Source of the DNA: Candidatus Limnocylindrales bacterium
GTDB taxonomy: Bacteria > Patescibacteriota > Microgenomatia > Levybacterales > UBA12049
Length of the DNA: 54,551 nucleotides
Direction: 5' to 3'
Assembly: GCA_035526025.1 (NCBI GenBank)
Contig: DATLDE010000008.1
Coordinates: 1 to 54,551, forward strand
The translations under genes were made by a program, and so were the position numbers. Position 1 is the stretch's first letter, and every line of letters starts with the position of its first letter. Of this stretch, positions 3,918-16,615 are shown piece after piece. The notes beneath the pieces were generated by a model. It ran no database searches. It was given only the letters and a program-made list of their open reading frames with translations, and was not told the DNA's origin.

Positions 3918-5093
3918 ATGCTTACGGGTTTGATTTTTCTTCTAATTCTCTCTGTTCTTGTTCTTATTCATGAAGCGGGGCATTTTTTTGTAGCTAAGAA
4001 ATTGGGTATAAAAGTTGAGGAATTTGGTTTTGGGCTTCCCCTGACAAAGGCACTATTTTCTGTAAAAAGAGGGGAGACTACATATTCTTTTTATCCGGCA
4101 CTTATAGGAGGATTTGTAAAATTATATGGTGAAGATGAGGCTGGTGCGGGAAGGATAAAAGTTAAGGAGCATAAGGAAGTATCAAAAGACAAAGACAGAG
4201 CATTTTTCTCACGGCCCATATGGCAGAGAGTTGCAGTGATTGTTGCTGGAGTCGTGATGAATACAGTTCTTGCTGTAGCGATTTACTATTCATTTCTGGG
4301 GATTACAAATTTCAGGACAGAAATTCCACTTCTTGGGGACCATAAGTTTTTTGCAGTAAATCAGCAGAATAAATCTGAGATTATAATCAGTGACGTTGCA
4401 AAAGATTCACCGGCTGAAAAAGCAAAAGTAAAACCTTTATCAAAAATACTGAGTGTAAACGGTCAAAAAGTGGCAACAATGGATTTCTTTATAGAGTTCA
4501 TAAAAAAGAACAAGGGACAGGAAGTTATTTTGGAATTACAGGATTTGAAGACCAGTGATAAGCAAACCATAAAACTTACTCCACGAGTAAATCCTCCGAA
4601 GAATCAGGGAGCACTAGGCGTCTCCTTTTTTCCCATAAAAACAGCAGTACTGACATATGAAACACAAGCTCAGAAATTATTTTCAGGATTTACGCATCCT
4701 CTGAATTTGATGAGTTACAATTTTGACGTGATGGGAAAGCTAATCGCAACCTCGATTAAGGATAAAACTGCTGAGCCAATAAGCCAGGGGGTTTCAGGGC
4801 CAGTTGGGATTTATTCAGTAGTTGGTGAGATAATAAATATTCCCAATATGAGAGAGCGCGTATTGCAGCTTTTGAACTTGGCAGGGCTTTTATCAATTTC
4901 TTTGGCATTTTTCAATGTGTTACCGATTCCAGGACTTGATGGTGGACGTCTGTTCTTCATAATCATAGAAGCTGTGACCAGAAAAAAATTAAATCCCAAA
5001 TTTGAAGCCTATGCAAATGCAATCGGGATGGCAGTTCTTATTGGTCTTATAATTCTCGTAACTTTCAAAGACCTCTTTCAGATATTAAAATAA
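3918..5093 (+). CDS. rseP: Site-2 intramembrane metalloprotease (M50) with PDZ domain
   Basis: HEAGH zinc motif, GGFVKLYGE, AGVVMN, PDZ-like DSPAEKA segment and NVLPIPGLDGG. Confidence 0.93.
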   Translation: MLTGLIFLLILSVLVLIHEAGHFFVAKKLGIKVEEFGFGLPLTKALFSVKRGETTYSFYPALIGGFVKLYGEDEAGAGRIKVKEHKEVSKDKDRAFFSRPIWQRVAVIVAGVVMNTVLAVAIYYSFLGITNFRTEIPLLGDHKFFAVNQQNKSEIIISDVAKDSPAEKAKVKPLSKILSVNGQKVATMDFFIEFIKKNKGQEVILELQDLKTSDKQTIKLTPRVNPPKNQGALGVSFFPIKTAVLTYETQAQKLFSGFTHPLNLMSYNFDVMGKLIATSIKDKTAEPISQGVSGPVGIYSVVGEIINIPNMRERVLQLLNLAGLLSISLAFFNVLPIPGLDGGRLFFIIIEAVTRKKLNPKFEAYANAIGMAVLIGLIILVTFKDLFQILK

Positions 5094-10507: not shown

Positions 10508-10536
10508 TTGACAAATTTCAAATTATTGTTTATAAT
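10508..10536 (+). promoter_or_regulatory. Perfect-consensus sigma70 promoter of the T-box/proBAC transcript
   Basis: TTGACA (10508-10513), 17-nt spacer, TATAAT (10531-10536). Confidence 0.9.
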
Positions 10537-10550
10537 CTAATTAGTTTATA

Positions 10551-10793
10551 AAAGCGTTGAGTTTGGTTTCCCGCCAAACGAGCTGCATACGATGAGTATG
10601 ACGGAAGGACACCGTAAAAATAAATCCAAAGTGTGTCGGTAACGGAGCACTAAATAAGAAGTTTCTTTTTAGATGTTCTCCGCTGGTTGGCGGAGATTTT
10701 TGTATTAAGGGACTTAAAGCAAGGTGGTACCACGAGCGAATCCTCGTCCTTGCCTATCAGAATTGATCTGATGGGTGAAGACGAGGTTTTTTT
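10551..10793 (+). promoter_or_regulatory. T-box riboswitch leader (transcriptional), probable Pro (CCC) specifier
   Basis: T-box core AAGCAAGGTGGTACCACG (10717-10734). Antiterminator: AAGG 10721-24 / CCTT 10748-51, TGGTACC bulge, ACGAG 10732-36 / CTCGT 10743-47. Stem III TCTCCGC/GCGGAGA (10677-10696). K-turn-closed short Stem I at 10553-10584. Confidence 0.9.
10742..10793 (+). terminator. Intrinsic terminator (T-box attenuator)
   Basis: CCTCGTC (10742-48) pairs with GACGAGG (10780-86), followed by 7 T. It is mutually exclusive with the antiterminator. Confidence 0.88.
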
Positions 10794-11429
10794 ATGGCTA
10801 AAAATATGAAAAAAATAATTGTTATCAAAATAGGAAGCAGTGTGCTTATGACGAAACGCAATCAGCTTGACGAGTTTCGGATTGCTCATATTGCCAAACA
10901 GGTTAGTGCTTTGAAAGAAAAAGGCATAGGTATCGTATTGGTCATTTCTGGTGCCGTCGCATATGGATCAAATTTTATTGATTTATCCAAGAATCAAAAA
11001 CAAATCAGACAGGCTGCAGCGGGCATTGGGCAGGTGTATACAACCTGTACTTTTAACAATATATTTAATCAAAGCAAACTACAGCTGGCACAAATGTTAC
11101 TCACTAAAGATTCTTTTAACACGGATCTCAAGAGAAAAAAGATTAAGAAGCTTATCGAATTCTATGCGGAGTCCAATTTTATCACTTTTATAAATGAGAA
11201 TGATGTAATTGATCTGAACAGCTTTGGAGGTAATGATCATTTGGCTGCGGAAGTCACACGACTGCTGAATACAAAAAAACTGATAATTCTCTCGACGTGG
11301 GAGGGATCAATACATGGCGTGGGTGGTGGGCAGGCCAAGCAAGACGCCATAGCAATGCTTACAGAGAGCGATATAGAGGCGAGTATTGTTAACGGAAGAA
11401 CAAAAGATATTATTTTACAATCAATATGA
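10794..11429 (+). CDS. proB: Glutamate 5-kinase, truncated (no PUA domain, internal deletion)
   Basis: KIGSSVL, ISGAVAYG, AAAGIGQ, INEND and FGGND motifs; first gene after the T-box. The start may be ATG 10806. Confidence 0.85.
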   Translation: MAKNMKKIIVIKIGSSVLMTKRNQLDEFRIAHIAKQVSALKEKGIGIVLVISGAVAYGSNFIDLSKNQKQIRQAAAGIGQVYTTCTFNNIFNQSKLQLAQMLLTKDSFNTDLKRKKIKKLIEFYAESNFITFINENDVIDLNSFGGNDHLAAEVTRLLNTKKLIILSTWEGSIHGVGGGQAKQDAIAMLTESDIEASIVNGRTKDIILQSI

Positions 11430-12613
11430 AAAACCAAATTAATCTCAACCAAATAAAAGATGCTGCTCTTATACTTTCTCAAAAAAAAGAGAGTGATCAA
11501 AATATGTTTTTAAAAAATCTCGCGAATTCTTTAATGGACCACAAGGAGCTCATTTTTAAAGCGAACAGAAAAGATATTAGGAATGCAGAAAAAAATAATC
11601 TGTCCACTTCTATGATTCAGCGGTTGATTCTTGATGAAGATTTATTGAACGACTTAATTTTAAGACTTGGTAATTTGCAAAAATTGAAAAGTGTAACGGG
11701 TACGATTTTGGAAGAGAAGTTACTGAAAAATAAATTGATTTTAAAAAAAGTATCCGTGCCCTTGGGTGTAATCTTGGTGATTTACGAATCACGTCCTGAA
11801 GTCACGATTGATGTAGCTGCGTTATGTATTAAATCCGGAAATGCAGTGATTCTCAAAGGGGGATCTGAGGCCATCAATACAAATAGGGCGCTGCATCAAT
11901 GTGTTATTGAGGCACTGGATAAATCGAAATTATCAAAAAAGACTGTTACGTATATTGAAGTCCGCATCATGTTAAATAAATTATTAAATAGGAGTGATTA
12001 TATTGATCTGGTTATTGCGCGTGGTGGATATGGGATGGTGAAAAATGTTATGGAAAAATCAAGAATTCCTGTTTTGGCGCATTCCGCAGGAGGGGCAAGG
12101 ATCTATATAGATGAAAGCGCTGATTTATCAATTGTTGAGAAGATTATAATCAACTCAAAAACAAGTAAGCCTGCGGCGTGCAATTCACTGGACACGATCC
12201 TTATTCATCAGAAAATCGCCAAAAAAGTTTTACTTATTCTAAAAAAGACGTTAAAAAACAGTAAGGTAGGGATTGTGAACAACCAGTGGGAGCAGGAATT
12301 CCTTGATTTAAAGATTGGTATAAAAATTGTAAAAAACCTGGAGGAAGCGATCAAATTTATCAATATTTATAGTAAAAAACATTCTGAGGGCATAATTGCT
12401 CAGAACAAAGCAGTTATTAATAAGTTTAAAAATTCTATTGATATAGCGGCAGTATTCATAAATTGTTCGACACGATTTCATGATGGTTACGAATTTGGAA
12501 TGGGCGCTGAAATGGGTATTTCAACCGGAAAGCTTCATGCAAGAGGACCTGTCGGGTTAAAAGAATTAACAACGTACAAATGGGAGGTATATGGAAATGG
12601 ACAAATTAGATAA
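11426..12613 (+). CDS. proA: Gamma-glutamyl phosphate reductase
   Basis: VPLGVILVIYESRP, LKGGSEA, catalytic ACNSLDT, HSEGI and STRFHDG.EFG.GAEMGISTGKLHARGPVGL; ATGA overlap with proB. Confidence 0.96.
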   Translation: MKNQINLNQIKDAALILSQKKESDQNMFLKNLANSLMDHKELIFKANRKDIRNAEKNNLSTSMIQRLILDEDLLNDLILRLGNLQKLKSVTGTILEEKLLKNKLILKKVSVPLGVILVIYESRPEVTIDVAALCIKSGNAVILKGGSEAINTNRALHQCVIEALDKSKLSKKTVTYIEVRIMLNKLLNRSDYIDLVIARGGYGMVKNVMEKSRIPVLAHSAGGARIYIDESADLSIVEKIIINSKTSKPAACNSLDTILIHQKIAKKVLLILKKTLKNSKVGIVNNQWEQEFLDLKIGIKIVKNLEEAIKFINIYSKKHSEGIIAQNKAVINKFKNSIDIAAVFINCSTRFHDGYEFGMGAEMGISTGKLHARGPVGLKELTTYKWEVYGNGQIR

Positions 12614-13382
12614 AAAAATAGCAATAATCGGAGCCGGGCACATGGGAAAATCCTTGATGAAAGGATTAATTAATAGTGGATTTAAAAAGAATAATCTTTT
12701 TGTTTCAAATAAATCAAAAGATAATAAAAATGTTGTATTAAAAGCTGATTGGATCATACTCGCGGTTAAGCCTTCAATAATCTCAGAGGTGATCCAAGAA
12801 ATTAAAGATGGTGTTCAAAATAGATTGCTTATATCTGTTGCTGCAGCAGTAAGTATTTCAAATATTGAAAAATATGTAGGAAATAGAAATCAAAAGATAA
12901 TGAGAATTATGCCAAATATAGCAGTTGCTCATAATCAAGGTGTAATTGGTCTAATTGCAAACGAAAATGCTACCAGCACTGAAAAGCAGGAGGTAATTAG
13001 TCTATTCTCCGGATTAGGTTTAGTTGTTGATCTTAAAAAAGAGAAAGACTTGGATATGATTACTTTAATCTCTGCCTGTAGTCCTGCAATTATCGCTCAT
13101 TTTATGGAAATGTTTTCTGAGTACGGTACAACACATGGATTATCGGCAAAAGATTCAGAAAAGATTGTTCTGCAGGTGTTCAAAGGCACAGTTGAGTATC
13201 TTGAAAAATCAAATCTATCATCTTCTCAATTAAAGCAATCCGTAGCTACAAAAGGCGGAGTAACAGAAGAAATCATTAAAAGCTTGGATAACAAAAAAGT
13301 GTCTTTGAATTTTACGGAGAGTTTGGATAAGGGATATCAGAGAATAAATAAAGTTATTGAGGAGGTGAAAAAAAATGAGTAA
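12597..13382 (+). CDS. proC: Pyrroline-5-carboxylate reductase
   Basis: IAIIGAGHMG, ILAVKP, RIMPN and VATKGGVT motifs. GGAGGT at 12583-88 favours ATG 12597 over 12591. Confidence 0.93.
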   Translation: MDKLDKKIAIIGAGHMGKSLMKGLINSGFKKNNLFVSNKSKDNKNVVLKADWIILAVKPSIISEVIQEIKDGVQNRLLISVAAAVSISNIEKYVGNRNQKIMRIMPNIAVAHNQGVIGLIANENATSTEKQEVISLFSGLGLVVDLKKEKDLDMITLISACSPAIIAHFMEMFSEYGTTHGLSAKDSEKIVLQVFKGTVEYLEKSNLSSSQLKQSVATKGGVTEEIIKSLDNKKVSLNFTESLDKGYQRINKVIEEVKKNE

Positions 13383-13767
13383 AGAAGAACTTAGAACTGA
13401 AGTTGTACTGACCGGACGTGGGGTAAAAAAACTTTTAGAGCGGCGGGGTATAAGAAATGTTGAAAAGGATAAATCCGGTAAATATGTCGTGGCAACATTT
13501 ACAGGGGATGAGAGTTCTGCAGAGACTGGTTTTGGAAAACTGTCAATTGAATACAAACTTGTAAATAATACATCTCCAAATGGCAATAGGACAATTGTCA
13601 TATTTGGTGATTTGAGACAGAGGGGCCATAGAGATGTTCGTAAGGTTACTTTAAATCATGAGACAGGTGAAGGGTATCAGGAGTTTGGCAGTGGAATGTA
13701 CGTTGGGGTTAGGACCAATGCAGGAGCTGATATATTTGTTCGGGGGACAGAAAAGAGAATGGAATAA
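13375..13767 (+). CDS. Hypothetical protein translationally coupled to proC
   Basis: Overlaps the proC stop; SD GGAGGTGA (13361-68) lies 6 nt before the ATG. Confidence 0.7.
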   Translation: MSKEELRTEVVLTGRGVKKLLERRGIRNVEKDKSGKYVVATFTGDESSAETGFGKLSIEYKLVNNTSPNGNRTIVIFGDLRQRGHRDVRKVTLNHETGEGYQEFGSGMYVGVRTNAGADIFVRGTEKRME

Positions 13768-13809
13768 TAGTTACATAATTCAATATTTTAAGTTAATATT
13801 ATATAAACT

Positions 13810-14289
13810 ATGAACGATATTTATAAAGTGCTTGAGGAGCTAGGGATCATATATCAAAAATATGATCATCCTGCAGTTTTTACTGCTGAAGATGCGGATT
13901 TGCACTACTCAGGTATAGATGGGTTTAAAAGTAAAAATCTTTTTCTGAGGAATAAAAAAGGCGACAAGCACTTTCTTGTGATCGTAAAGAGTACAAAAAA
14001 GGTTGATTTAAAAAGATTGGAAGGTTTGCTGGAAGCTGACAAGCTTAGCTTCGGATCACCTGAGCGGATGATGAAATATCTCGGACTTACACCGGGATCC
14101 GTTTCGCCATTTGGTTTGATCAATGATTCCGAAAAAGTTGTCAACGTAGTAGTTGATAAAGACTTATTGGAATATAAGAAAGTTGCATTCCATCCAAATG
14201 TAAATACTGCCACACTAGTTATAGATACTGAAAATTTTAAGAAGTATTTAGAGTGGACAAAAAATAAAGTAACTTATTTAGATCTGTAA
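13810..14289 (+). CDS. YbaK/ProX-family prolyl-tRNA editing protein
   Basis: HPAVFT, KNLFLRNKKG, LSFGSPE and LTPGSVSPFGL...FHPNVNTAT motifs typical of ProXp-ala/PrdX; adjacent to proS. Confidence 0.9.
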   Translation: MNDIYKVLEELGIIYQKYDHPAVFTAEDADLHYSGIDGFKSKNLFLRNKKGDKHFLVIVKSTKKVDLKRLEGLLEADKLSFGSPERMMKYLGLTPGSVSPFGLINDSEKVVNVVVDKDLLEYKKVAFHPNVNTATLVIDTENFKKYLEWTKNKVTYLDL

Positions 14290-14318
14290 TGTATCATATA
14301 CTAACTTATGATACATTA
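14287..14318. promoter_or_regulatory. Perfect 12-8-12 inverted repeat (operator or dif-like recombinase site)
   Basis: TAATGTATCATA (14287-98), TACTAACT, TATGATACATTA (14307-18). The repeat is seen directly; the function is inferred. Confidence 0.5.
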
Positions 14319-14369
14319 GGAAAATGAATTGTTATAGCAGAGGCTGAATGTTATACTAACTATGTTGAT

Positions 14370-16052
14370 ATGAAATATTCAAAATTATTTGGAAAAACAA
14401 TTAAAGATATGCCAAAGGATGCGACACTTGCGTCTCACAAACTGCTTTATCAGGGTGGATTTATACGTGAGAGTACCGCAGGCAGGTATTATTTTCTTCC
14501 TCTCGGACAAAAAGTCCAGCAGAAAATTATCAAAATAGTTAAAGAAGAAATGGATAGAGCAGATGCGCAGGAGATTGTTGCGCCAATTCTTCACCCTCTT
14601 TATCTTTGGCAGGAAACAAATCGTGATAAAGCGGATTTTGGCCTACTTAAGATAAGAGATAGGCGAGACATGGATTTTGTTTTGGGGGGGACAGCTGAAG
14701 AGATGATGGTAGATTTGGTTCGTAAGTTTCAGATAAGCTACAAAGATCTGCCATTTCAGGTTTATCAATTTGCATCAAAATTCAGGGATGAGCTTCGCGC
14801 CCGAGGAGGACTTCTCAGAGTACGAGAGTTCATCATGAAAGATGGATATTCATTCCACGCTGATGAAGAAGATTTTAAAAAAGAATACAAAAAAATGGCA
14901 AATACCTATTCAAAAATATTTGAAAGAGTAGGAATCGACACTTTTATGGTGGCGGCTGACAATGGGGATATCGGTGGAGAATATGCTCATGAGTTTCAGG
15001 TTAAATCAGATGCCGGAGAAGACACAATTTTCTACGTACCTTCAAAAAAATTATATTTTAATAAAGAAATTGCCCCAACAAAAGCATTGCCTTTTGATCA
15101 GAAGAATGAAGAGCAAAAAACGATGGAAGAGGTTGAAGGAAAAGGAATAATAGGAGTTGAAGCACTCGCCAAATTTCTAAACATTCCTGTGGAGGCAACA
15201 ACGAAGACAATTCTATTTGAAACGGAAAAAGGGCAAATAATTGCAGCTGCGCTTCGTGGAGAATTTGATATAGATGAAACAAAGCTTAAAAGAATTATAA
15301 AGTGTCAAAGCCTTACGCTTATAGCTCCTGAAAAAATTAAAGAACTGACAGGGGCCGAAGTGGGATATGCAGGAATTATCAATCTTCCAAAAGAAGTGAA
15401 AATATTTATGGATGATTCCATGGAAGGTAGAGTTAATTTTGAAATGGGCGCCAACAGAACCAATTTTCATTCTATAAATATAAATTTTGGTCGTGATTTG
15501 CCACTTCCTGAAAAGTTCTATGATTTTAAAGAAACGCGTGTTGGGGACTTATATCCGGAAACTGGAGAGCCATATGAAACGTTCAGAGGGATAGAAGTTG
15601 GAAATATCTTTCAGCTTGGATATCACTATTCTAAAAAAATGGACAAAGCGACTTTTATGGATAAAGACGGAAAAGAAACGCCTTATTACATGGGTTGTTA
15701 TGGAATTGGAATAGGTAGAACTCTTGGAGCGATAGTTGAATCAAGTCATGATGAAAGAGGAATTATCTGGCCTAAGTCTGTTTCGCCTTATGATGTCCAT
15801 CTTATTTCAATCAAAAGCAATGACAAAGCAGAGGAAATTTATAACAAATTGCAAGATGCTGGGGTAGAAGTGCTTTACGATGATAGGGAAGACATATCGG
15901 CTGGAAATCAATTCGCAGATGCTGATCTGATCGGAATTCCAGTTCGGCTAGTGGTAAGTGCCAAATCAGGAGATAAGATCGAGTGGAAAGAGAGAGCGAG
16001 TAAAGAAGCAAAGCTGTTAAGTTTTGATGAAGTCTTGAAGTTTTTAAAGTAA
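14370..16052 (+). CDS. proS: Proline--tRNA ligase (bacterial type with INS editing domain)
   Basis: FRDELRARGGLLRVREFIMKDGYSF, GIEVGNIFQLG and MGCYGIGIGR motifs, YbaK-like insertion and anticodon-binding C-terminal domain. Confidence 0.98.
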   Translation: MKYSKLFGKTIKDMPKDATLASHKLLYQGGFIRESTAGRYYFLPLGQKVQQKIIKIVKEEMDRADAQEIVAPILHPLYLWQETNRDKADFGLLKIRDRRDMDFVLGGTAEEMMVDLVRKFQISYKDLPFQVYQFASKFRDELRARGGLLRVREFIMKDGYSFHADEEDFKKEYKKMANTYSKIFERVGIDTFMVAADNGDIGGEYAHEFQVKSDAGEDTIFYVPSKKLYFNKEIAPTKALPFDQKNEEQKTMEEVEGKGIIGVEALAKFLNIPVEATTKTILFETEKGQIIAAALRGEFDIDETKLKRIIKCQSLTLIAPEKIKELTGAEVGYAGIINLPKEVKIFMDDSMEGRVNFEMGANRTNFHSININFGRDLPLPEKFYDFKETRVGDLYPETGEPYETFRGIEVGNIFQLGYHYSKKMDKATFMDKDGKETPYYMGCYGIGIGRTLGAIVESSHDERGIIWPKSVSPYDVHLISIKSNDKAEEIYNKLQDAGVEVLYDDREDISAGNQFADADLIGIPVRLVVSAKSGDKIEWKERASKEAKLLSFDEVLKFLK

Positions 16053-16083
16053 AAATATAAACTTAGGTTCGAGCTTGTAATCT

Positions 16084-16329
16084 TTAATTATTTTTCTTCT
16101 TCTTATGCTTTTTTCTGTGTTCCTCTCTCTGTCTTTCTAATCTAGCTGCAGCTGTTTCTCTTGTTGGAGATTTATCTTTTCTCGCAGCATCCCTCATCCT
16201 TTGCTCCTTTGACTTCTTTTTTTCCGCAGCAAAGACAATCATAGTAAGTGGTAAGCTAATCGCTAAATCAAAATAGCTTATTCGTCTTCGATCTGCACTG
16301 GGATTTGGTCTTTCAATTTCTCTTCGCAT
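16084..16329 (-). CDS. Small basic hypothetical protein with one hydrophobic segment
   Basis: ORF MRREIERPN...KKHKKKKNN convergent with proS; ATG 16329 is preferred. Confidence 0.45.
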   Translation of the reverse strand: MRREIERPNPSADRRRISYFDLAISLPLTMIVFAAEKKKSKEQRMRDAARKDKSPTRETAAARLERQREEHRKKHKKKKNN

Positions 16330-16396
16330 AATTTCAAAATAATTTAATCTCAAAAATAGAATTAGTTTTAATACCGGGATATAGAAGATCAATAAA

Positions 16397-16615
16397 TCAA
16401 GATTTTCTGAGTCCTGGCCGTCTCAGTGGAGGAGGGGCATCTCCAGCAGGTCTTCCGCTCTTTAGTCTTTTTCTAAAAGCTTCTGTAAGTTTGATTGTAT
16501 TTTCTGATGGGGGATGTCCATCAAATCTTTCACTTCCCGCGTCTCTATTTGCCCACCTATTTGGCGGATTATTTATTCTGAAATCATGTCCATCGTGTCC
16601 ATGTCTATCTTTCAT
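16397..16615 (-). CDS. Small hypothetical protein (Arg/Pro-rich)
   Basis: Extended -10 TGCTATAAT (16632-16624, minus) lies 8 nt before ATG 16615. Confidence 0.5.
   Translation of the reverse strand: MKDRHGHDGHDFRINNPPNRWANRDAGSERFDGHPPSENTIKLTEAFRKRLKSGRPAGDAPPPLRRPGLRKS

Follow-up and report, generated by a model that had tools for sequence, protein, structure and literature searches.

A T-box leader with an ultrashort Stem I and a predicted intrinsic terminator upstream of the proline operon of a Patescibacteria bacterium

According to a kinetic model of T-box riboswitches, those acting on transcription need the elbow-binding double T-loop of a long Stem I; in the same model tRNA capture must beat the polymerase to the terminator, and only translational switches can afford an ultrashort Stem I (PMC7583486). 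The ultrashort T-boxes known so far regulate translation only, stand before ileS only and read tRNA-Ile only, in all members (10.1101/2023.02.28.530422), and a 2026 review describes the ultrashort T-box only as a translational ileS class (PMC12990946). The leader of the proline operon in a Patescibacteria (CPR) bacterium raises the question of whether such a Stem I can also be combined with an intrinsic terminator and with an amino acid other than isoleucine. The leader lies in a window of 54,551 nucleotides, the whole stretch of DNA that was analysed, and an earlier note, made from the letters of this DNA, had taken it for a transcriptional T-box with an ultrashort Stem I and a proline specifier. 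That interpretation proved to be essentially right, the leader being a variant of the T-box and not a new kind of system. We put at roughly 0.8 the probability that a tRNA-Pro-responsive T-box riboswitch controls proB-proA-proC-(ORF)-ybaK-like-proS, an assignment drawn from sequence and comparison. The locus is made up of the following features.

10508-10536, + strand: sigma-70-type promoter, TTGACA at 10508-13, 17-nt spacer, TATAAT at 10531-36, 12/12 consensus matches
10553-10793, + strand: T-box leader, upstream of the proline operon
10794-11429, + strand: proB, short form without the PUA domain
11426-12613, + strand: proA, 449.7 bits, above the cut-off
12591-13382, + strand: proC
13375-13767, + strand: ORF of 130 aa, function not assigned
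13810-14289, + strand: YbaK-like ORF
14370-16052, + strand: proS, 618.1 bits, above the cut-off

The promoter had been called perfect, and with every one of its twelve positions at consensus it is; transcription is predicted to start at about 10543-10545. Since a scan of 10780-16400, from the leader past the end of proS, found no terminator-like site, the proB-to-proS cluster is probably one transcription unit. The match of the CCC specifier to downstream proBAC genes, which had been suggested, was upheld and extends to proS. Proline T-boxes are found in front of proBA and proI in Firmicutes, and the proline operon is thus a target that these leaders and the window leader have in common. The guess of a CPR-type genome was also correct, as the ProB homologues came from Gottesman-, Roizman-, Davies-, Levy-, Ames- and Shapirobacteria and from WS6, all of them Patescibacteria. 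When both strands were searched, the proline-operon leader was the only T-box-like element in the whole window. Within the cluster, proS is preceded by a weak promoter-like site.

The T-box nature of the leader was examined with the Rfam model RF00230, a search that the earlier note had recommended. The model matched 10548-10754 at 44.6 bits, with an E-value of 8.8e-9 for the region and 1.2e-6 for the whole window on both strands; this is below the RF00230 gathering score of 93, and the match is seen with E-value thresholds, Rfam at gathering thresholds giving no match anywhere in the window. The alignment runs end to end, with 9 nt standing for 76 Stem I model positions, and the T-box sequence AAGGUGGUACCACG and both antiterminator helices are placed with high posterior probability. 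The match is beyond chance, and 10553-10793 is a real T-box leader. None of the related loci (0/20) reached the gathering score either, so that the Patescibacteria leaders escape standard Rfam annotation altogether.

Genomes and metagenomes of Microgenomates-type Patescibacteria yielded more than 100 homologous leaders. A search of reference genomes with ProB alone gave no confirmed relative; it was an alignment of ProB homologues that found them, and in the 37 related reference genomes whose regions upstream of proB were compared, most leaders have GGUGGUACC together with the short hairpin of the window. With a scaffold pattern whose loop was left free and which included the 3' flank RAGCTG, 34 matches were obtained in reference genomes, 33/34 of them in Patescibacteria, and 83 in metagenomes. 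A structure-blind MAFFT alignment (A3) was made of 29 decoding modules, with the sequences trimmed to start at AGCG. In A3 the proposed pairs are formed in 97.2% of cases, compared with 27-43% for registers slid by 1-3 columns, and 10/17 pairs change on both sides; the observed values were reached by 0/500 shuffles. The covariance model R1, built from A3, scored the window at 96.8 bits; it recovered some 50 non-redundant leaders from the genome loci and gave 57 further matches in the metagenome loci, where no second-site members were found beyond the pattern-matched leaders. Collecting homologues and testing them for covariation had been proposed as a check, and the Stem I hairpin, Stem II, the IIA/B pseudoknot and the basal pairs of the linker helix do covary. 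The first 85 nt or so of the transcript hold the elements below as far as the IIB pseudoknot, and the linker helix and Stem III follow them.

10553-10584, + strand: complete ultrashort Stem I, consisting of closing helix, K-turn, 6-bp stem and 7-nt loop
10553-55 with 10582-84, + strand: closing helix AGC/GCU
10559-60 opposite 10580-81, + strand: K-turn region, bulge GUU, then GA opposite GA
10561-66 with 10574-79, + strand: 6-bp stem GUUUGG/CCAAAC
10567-73, + strand: specifier loop UUUCCCG, with CCC (Pro) at 10570-72 and the 3' purine G10573
10586-10600, + strand: mini Stem II, 5 bp CAUAC/GUAUG (10586-90 with 10596-600) and GNNRA pentaloop GAUGA at 10591-95, z -7.1
10602-04 with 10612-14, + strand: Stem IIA, CGG with CCG, from the RF00230 alignment and A3 covariation
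10607-09 with 10625-27, + strand: IIB pseudoknot, GGA with UCC, partners changing in concert
10631-38 with 10643-50, + strand: conserved linker helix, GUGUGUCG with CGGAGCAC, GUAA tetraloop, lineage-specific
10659-10715, + strand: Stem III, outer helix AAGUUUC 10659-65 with GGGACUU 10709-15, -23.2 kcal/mol, z -4.4
10677-10701, + strand: terminator-like hairpin inside Stem III, 8 bp (10677-10696) followed by UUUUU at 10697-10701, from the terminator scan

Each element that had been listed for Stem I, the K-turn, the loop, the T-box and the terminator is present at the position given for it. The hairpin at 10561-79, whose loss among homologues was to count against the proposal, is conserved with compensatory changes: in A3 the Stem I pairs are formed in 98.3% of cases, with double-sided changes in 3/6 pairs, and the variants include GCUUGG/CCAAGC, UUCCGG/CCGGAA, AUCGGG/CCUGAU and GUCCGG/CCGGGC. 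The K-turn claim stood in part. Its sequence requirements, a 3-nt bulge and tandem GA/GA, are present in the window, as judged from sequence and not from geometry, but across the family the motif is degenerate, with GA/GA in 6/65 members and AA/AA, GA/AA and AA/GA as the commonest forms. A Stem I of about 32 nt without AG bulge or distal T-loops had been described, and this was confirmed by both the RF00230 alignment and the placement of the promoter. In the window 16 nt separate the end of the -10 hexamer from the closing helix; a promoter is recognisable in 35/52 relatives, and in 34/35 of these the -10 ends 7-20 nt before the closing helix. From the predicted start to Stem II there are only about 42 nt. 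Because the -10 element sits so near the closing helix, a long Stem I cannot exist in these leaders, and its features (internal Specifier Loop, AG bulge, distal loop) are absent from the window leader. The specifier thus sits at the tip of a short Stem I, in its terminal loop, and an elbow-binding domain is lacking, which is the character by which the ultrashort (US) class is defined.

The stretch 10585-10670, which had been left as not foldable with confidence, now folds into the mini Stem II, the IIA/B pseudoknot and the linker helix. In Stem II 5/5 pairs covary in A3, and the GNNRA pentaloop is found in 64/65 leaders. Neither the window nor most members have an S-turn in Stem II (GAA/AGUA is missing from the window); L032 and L212 are among the few relatives with an expanded Stem II and an S-turn-like motif (GAA/AGGA). 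The IIB partners pair as GGAU/AUCC, GUC/GAC, AGCC/GGCU, GGUA/UACC, CCCAA/UUGGG and others across the leaders. In the linker helix the three basal pairs covary (GUG/CAC, GCG/CGC, AUG/CAU, ACG/CGU, UGA/UCA, UAG/CUA, CAG/CUG), and the core UGUCG/CGGAG is invariant and would form U.G, G.A and U.G. Stem III had been called canonical, which it is not, as it encloses the terminator-like hairpin and U-run of 10677-10701. Such a hairpin inside Stem III was found in 23/47 leaders, where 0.33 were expected from shuffles, and it belongs to at least four unrelated sequence classes. It was tested whether the 5' arm of this inner hairpin pairs with the linker helix, as an alternative structure or first checkpoint, and this was rejected as a general mechanism: the complementarity stands out only for hairpins of the ACACAC type, with z-scores of -1.3 to -3.8, the z-scores being mostly about -0.4 for the common UCCACC type, and for the window's own inner hairpin the z-score was -1.06, 16% of shuffles being equally good.

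The 3' part of the leader carries the elements by which expression would be decided.

10721-34, + strand: T-box sequence AAGGUGGUACCACG, with the 7-nt bulge UGGUACC at 10725-31
10721-10751, + strand: antiterminator, A1 10721-24 with 10748-51 and A2 10732-36 with 10743-47
10742-10793, + strand: intrinsic terminator, 19-bp hairpin 10742-10786 followed by U7 at 10787-93
10783-86, + strand: Shine-Dalgarno-like GAGG in the terminator 3' arm, with the U7 as spacer and AUG at 10794

The UGGUACC antiterminator and the U-tailed terminator that had been pointed out are thus both there. With the bulge open the antiterminator has -11.1 kcal/mol, and the terminator hairpin 10742-10786 has -28.9 kcal/mol and a z-score of -7.3, energies that are typical for T-boxes. 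The 5' arm of the terminator (10742-10761) reuses the antiterminator 3' strands at 10743-51, and the two folds are therefore mutually exclusive. A terminator with a run of at least 5 U, usually 6-8, is present in 45/52 non-redundant leaders, mostly at -20 to -30 kcal/mol. A second in-frame AUG of the window gene is at 10806.

The position of the GAGG, 7 nt before AUG 10794, brings up the question of whether this is a purely translational T-box like that of actinobacterial ileS, with 10742-10786 as a sequestrator of the Shine-Dalgarno (SD) sequence and the U7 as an A/U-rich spacer. All other T-boxes known to have an ultrashort Stem I are translational, a U-tailed terminator is not obvious in one of the valS leaders (L270), and the arrangement of the window recurs in the family: an SD-like motif (GAGG/GGAGG) lies within the final 9 nt of the 3' arm in 36/45 terminator-bearing leaders, and a start codon lies 0-3 nt past the U-run in 38/45. 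This start codon is the gene's own in 26/38; in the others it opens a mini-ORF of 2-31 codons, as in L001, whose 4-codon MAKI* ends in a stop overlapping the proB AUG. Against a role in translation alone, a pure run of U6-8, which after a strong hairpin is the signature of an intrinsic terminator, directly follows a hairpin of -20 to -30 kcal/mol in nearly all of these divergent leaders. Moreover, in L077, L095 (serS), L024, L033 and L029 the gene starts 21-46 nt past the U-run, in L077 with an SD of its own, and hairpin and U-run are kept, so that there the hairpin cannot be just a sequestrator. A purely translational T-box is therefore considered unlikely. To judge from these patterns, the final hairpin most likely terminates transcription and also masks the SD, the U-tract serving in addition as the spacer between SD and AUG. 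The leader is in this respect richer than had been proposed: besides the probable dual terminator/SD mask it has the mini Stem II, the linker helix and the insert in Stem III that resembles a terminator.

What the specifier loop reads was determined from the genes that follow the leaders. Loop positions 4-6 and the T-box bulge go with these genes as given here.

CCC/CCU/CCA/CCG at loop positions 4-6, bulge UGGU: proB, proA, proC, proS, ornithine cyclodeaminase, ornithine aminotransferase
UCC at loop positions 4-6, bulge UGGC: serS (448.9 bits, cut-off 301.65), PspA-like histidine phosphatase
GUC at loop positions 4-6, bulge UGGU: valS, two independent leaders

The ornithine cyclodeaminase and ornithine aminotransferase downstream of CCN leaders scored 406 bits (cut-off 350) and 445 bits (cut-off 378), and several further CCN leaders stand before ORFs without assigned function. 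Loop position 7 is a purine in every leader but one. As the 7-nt loop resembles an anticodon loop, several triplets are formally possible, and UUC, UCC or UUU could be read in another register, in which case a non-Pro tRNA, or no anticodon at all, would be sensed. Such readings are extremely improbable. Positions 1-3 vary across the family (UUU, CUU, CAU, UAC, UCC, UAU), while positions 4-6 stay CCN before identifiable proline-pathway genes, changing among Pro codons, and turn into UCC and GUC exactly at serS and valS; the UGGU bulge also fits an A73. The specifier register is thus confirmed, on this comparative ground, as loop positions 4-6, CCC in the window, and the proposal of a CCC specifier followed by one purine held. 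The same comparison did away with the idea of a proline-specific class, the family serving Ser (UCC) and Val (GUC) as well. The bulge nucleotide, for its part, appears to track the tRNA discriminator base, with UGGU for Pro and Val and UGGC for Ser; the tRNA-Val(GAC) gene on a related contig encodes A73 followed by CCA, which fits the UGGU bulge. On the roughly 110 contigs examined no tRNA-Pro gene was found, the tRNA genes present being only those for Val(GAC), Leu, Arg, Tyr, Gln, Gly, Lys and Cys. It could also be argued that the leader is a decaying T-box, which lost Stem I and with it tRNA sensing, leaving expression constitutive or otherwise controlled, as the Rfam score is half of the gathering score, most members show only a degenerate form of the K-turn consensus and in one relative (L026) the whole discriminator is gone. 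Yet hairpin, loop register, Stem II, pseudoknot, bulge and terminator are retained in more than 100 leaders that span several candidate phyla, and compensatory changes are seen; the co-switching of specifier and bulge nucleotide with gene function implies selection for tRNA recognition. A relic is therefore very unlikely, and a working proline-responsive leader is preferred.

Among known T-boxes the closest in build are the actinobacterial ultrashort ileS leaders (Mycobacterium, Nocardia; class of Sherwood et al. 2015, as defined in papers that cite it), for which structures are available (6UFG, 6UFM; as cited in PMC7583486). Both they and our leaders have a very short Stem I with a terminal-loop specifier followed by a purine, lack the AG bulge, the distal double T-loop and the Stem I-elbow contact, carry Stem II and the IIA/B pseudoknot directly after Stem I, and possess a T-box bulge that pairs with NCCA; counted from the 5' end, the specifier is at nt 18-20 here and at nt 16-18 in N. 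farcinica. However, the ileS class is translational, actinobacterial and bound to ileS and tRNA-Ile, whereas our leaders close with an intrinsic terminator and U6-8, come from Patescibacteria and precede Pro, Ser and Val genes, including biosynthetic operons, with the specifiers CCN, UCC and GUC. Unlike in the ileS class, Stem II is cut to 5 bp and a GNNRA pentaloop and Stem III often contains a terminator-like hairpin, and the linker, which is single-stranded in Mtb, has a conserved extra helix. With the canonical transcriptional T-boxes (RF00230; B. subtilis tyrS, glyQS) the leader shares the T-box sequence, a 7-nt bulged antiterminator opposed to a terminator with U-run, a K-turn-type sequence where Stem I begins, the IIA/B pseudoknot and a specifier matched to the gene. 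The canonical Stem I measures about 85-100 nt, with an S-turn Specifier Loop, an AG bulge and an elbow-docking distal loop, in place of which there is a 19-nt hairpin here, and its distal features are considered essential for co-transcriptional tRNA capture (PMC7583486).

In four relatives, L023, L028, L033 and L037, the K-turn is retained together with an internal Specifier Loop (AAUAGUA ... GAA-CCN-R), on top of which sits a stub of 3-6 bp. These relatives share with the window the operon context, the Stem II/IIA/B module, the linker helix and the terminator, but keep the codon in the internal loop below the stub, whereas in the window it is in the terminal loop. These leaders look like evolutionary intermediates toward the terminal-loop design. 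The distal part of Stem I is absent from them, as it is from the window leader and from the actinobacterial T-boxes with an "intermediate" Stem I (Sherwood et al. 2015).

In TBDB a short-Stem-I model was applied only to Actinobacteria and to class I matches with a truncated Stem I (PMC7778990). No T-box papers on Patescibacteria or the candidate phyla radiation were found in the searchable literature, which restricts the ultrashort Stem I to the translational ileS class; the earlier note had said that it is described mainly there. In that literature, leaders of Patescibacteria in which an ultrashort Stem I is joined to an intrinsic terminator and which serve Pro, Ser and Val are apparently undescribed. 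The suggestion of an undescribed hybrid class was accordingly sound with respect to Stem I, terminator and CPR origin and too narrow in limiting it to proline.

By analogy with the established T-box mechanism (PMC7583486, PMC11297988), tRNA binding and read-through may be pictured as follows. Transcription would start at about 10543, and the first 85 nt would fold into a miniature decoding module of K-turn, Stem I, Stem II and IIA/B pseudoknot. The anticodon of tRNA-Pro (GGG for CCC; this isoacceptor and its A73 are assumed) would pair with 10570-72, with G10573 stacking beneath, and, the distal Stem I being absent, Stem I would make no contact with the tRNA elbow. If the tRNA is uncharged, its 3' ACCA could pair with UGGU at 10725-28 and stabilise the weak antiterminator (-11 kcal/mol), so that the polymerase passes the U7 tract and the SD in the terminator 3' arm remains accessible. 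With charged tRNA, or with none, the terminator of -29 kcal/mol would form and transcription would end at 10787-93, and in any read-through RNA that escapes termination the ribosome-binding site would be masked.

Other elements of the leader invite speculation. In the ileS T-box structures the S-turn purine string clamps the codon-anticodon helix at its minor groove (PMC7583486), a role in which the GNNRA pentaloop may have replaced it, and the linker helix may act as a ruler or tRNA contact of a new sort. In the glyQS T-box, pauses at 138, 178 and 207 are kinetic checkpoints (PMC13001445), and the Stem III hairpin with its U-run at 10677-10701 may likewise be a site of pausing or partial termination that gives time for slow tRNA capture. 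Taken as a whole, it is a tentative and rather doubtful idea that the Patescibacteria leaders form a distinct T-box lineage that takes a kinetic transcription decision without Stem I-elbow contact, in which a pentaloop clamp, a linker helix acting as ruler or contact and a Stem III pause or first checkpoint compensate, and in which terminator and SD sequestrator are one and the same final hairpin, the U-tract being the spacer.

A conserved natural family of leaders that joins an ultrashort Stem I and a smaller Stem II to an intrinsic terminator offers a direct test of the kinetic argument. It also extends T-box regulation into the Candidate Phyla Radiation and shows that the ultrashort design is not bound to ileS, since Pro, Ser and Val at least have become its targets as well. 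Measuring about 140-250 nt, these leaders rank with the smallest transcription switches that sense tRNA, and they recommend themselves as parts for orthogonal tRNA sensors. The sequencing runs that contain the locus are all metagenomes, from soil, groundwater and similar sources, and are typed as DNA, the type being a guess.

Inside Stem III of the proline leader in the window, 5' of the T-box sequence, lies a nested element with the outline of an intrinsic terminator.

Window 10677-10701: intrinsic-terminator-shaped hairpin with U-run, nested in Stem III

The same hairpin and U-run shape was found at the equivalent position in 23 of the 47 related leaders, against 0.33 expected by chance, and it is kept across at least four unrelated sequence classes. 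Our guess is that this element serves as a pause site.

Other observations concern homologous leaders and their surroundings, here numbered by locus (L) with coordinates given within each locus.

L026, about 2318-2560: proB leader
L270, about 10679-10880: valS leader
L001, about 2283-2300: mini-ORF MAKI*, 4 codons
L084, about 4502-4700, minus strand: Pro-specifier leader of the same ultrashort class
L004, 953-1076, minus strand: LOOT RNA (RF03000), scoring 67.1 bits where the gathering threshold is 46.4

In L009, L016, L024, L029 and L063 the 3' strand of Stem I is separated from the closing GCU by an extra hairpin of 20-35 nt, so that the base of Stem I becomes a three-way junction. L024 carries another insert, its second, on the 5' side. 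The L026 leader has the decoding module, then the linker helix and a hairpin of the Stem III type with a U8 run. The proB AUG comes directly next, the entire T-box/antiterminator/terminator domain being absent; either a natural deletion between the two U-runs or an artefact of assembly could account for this loss. The valS leader of L270 has the loop CCAGUCC, in which GUC is followed by C where a purine is expected, and the bulge UGGUACC. No terminator composed of a hairpin and U-run was found 5' of the valS start, and this leader may act at the level of translation or differ from the other members in some other way.

In L001, L010, L202, L004 and L021 the start codon directly 3' of the terminator U-run belongs not to the gene but to a mini-ORF 2-24 codons long. 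The UGA stop of the L001 mini-ORF overlaps the proB AUG (AUGA), which suggests translational coupling of the two. Leaders of the ultrashort class with CCC or CCU specifiers also stand 5' of a gene for a CsaA/Trbp111-type tRNA-binding protein (L084, L219, L247 and L252), which matches NF007495 at 142.7 bits and is an unusual T-box target. The LOOT RNA of L004 is on a Patescibacteria-type contig, where the proB T-box has it approximately 1.2 kb upstream.

Three further features were noted within the proline operon of the window.

Window 13375-13767: 130-aa ORF that follows proC and precedes the YbaK-like gene
Within window 14289-14357: perfect hairpin (GUAUCAUA ... UAUGAUAC) lacking a U-run, 3' of the YbaK-like ORF stop codon
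Within window 14289-14357, 3' of the hairpin: weak TG-extended promoter-like site, TTGTTA, 17-nt spacer, TATACT

The 130-aa ORF, for which no NCBIfam match was found, shares 8 nt with the end of proC and thus appears to be part of the operon. Since the promoter-like site lies just 5' of proS, this gene may have its own promoter in addition.
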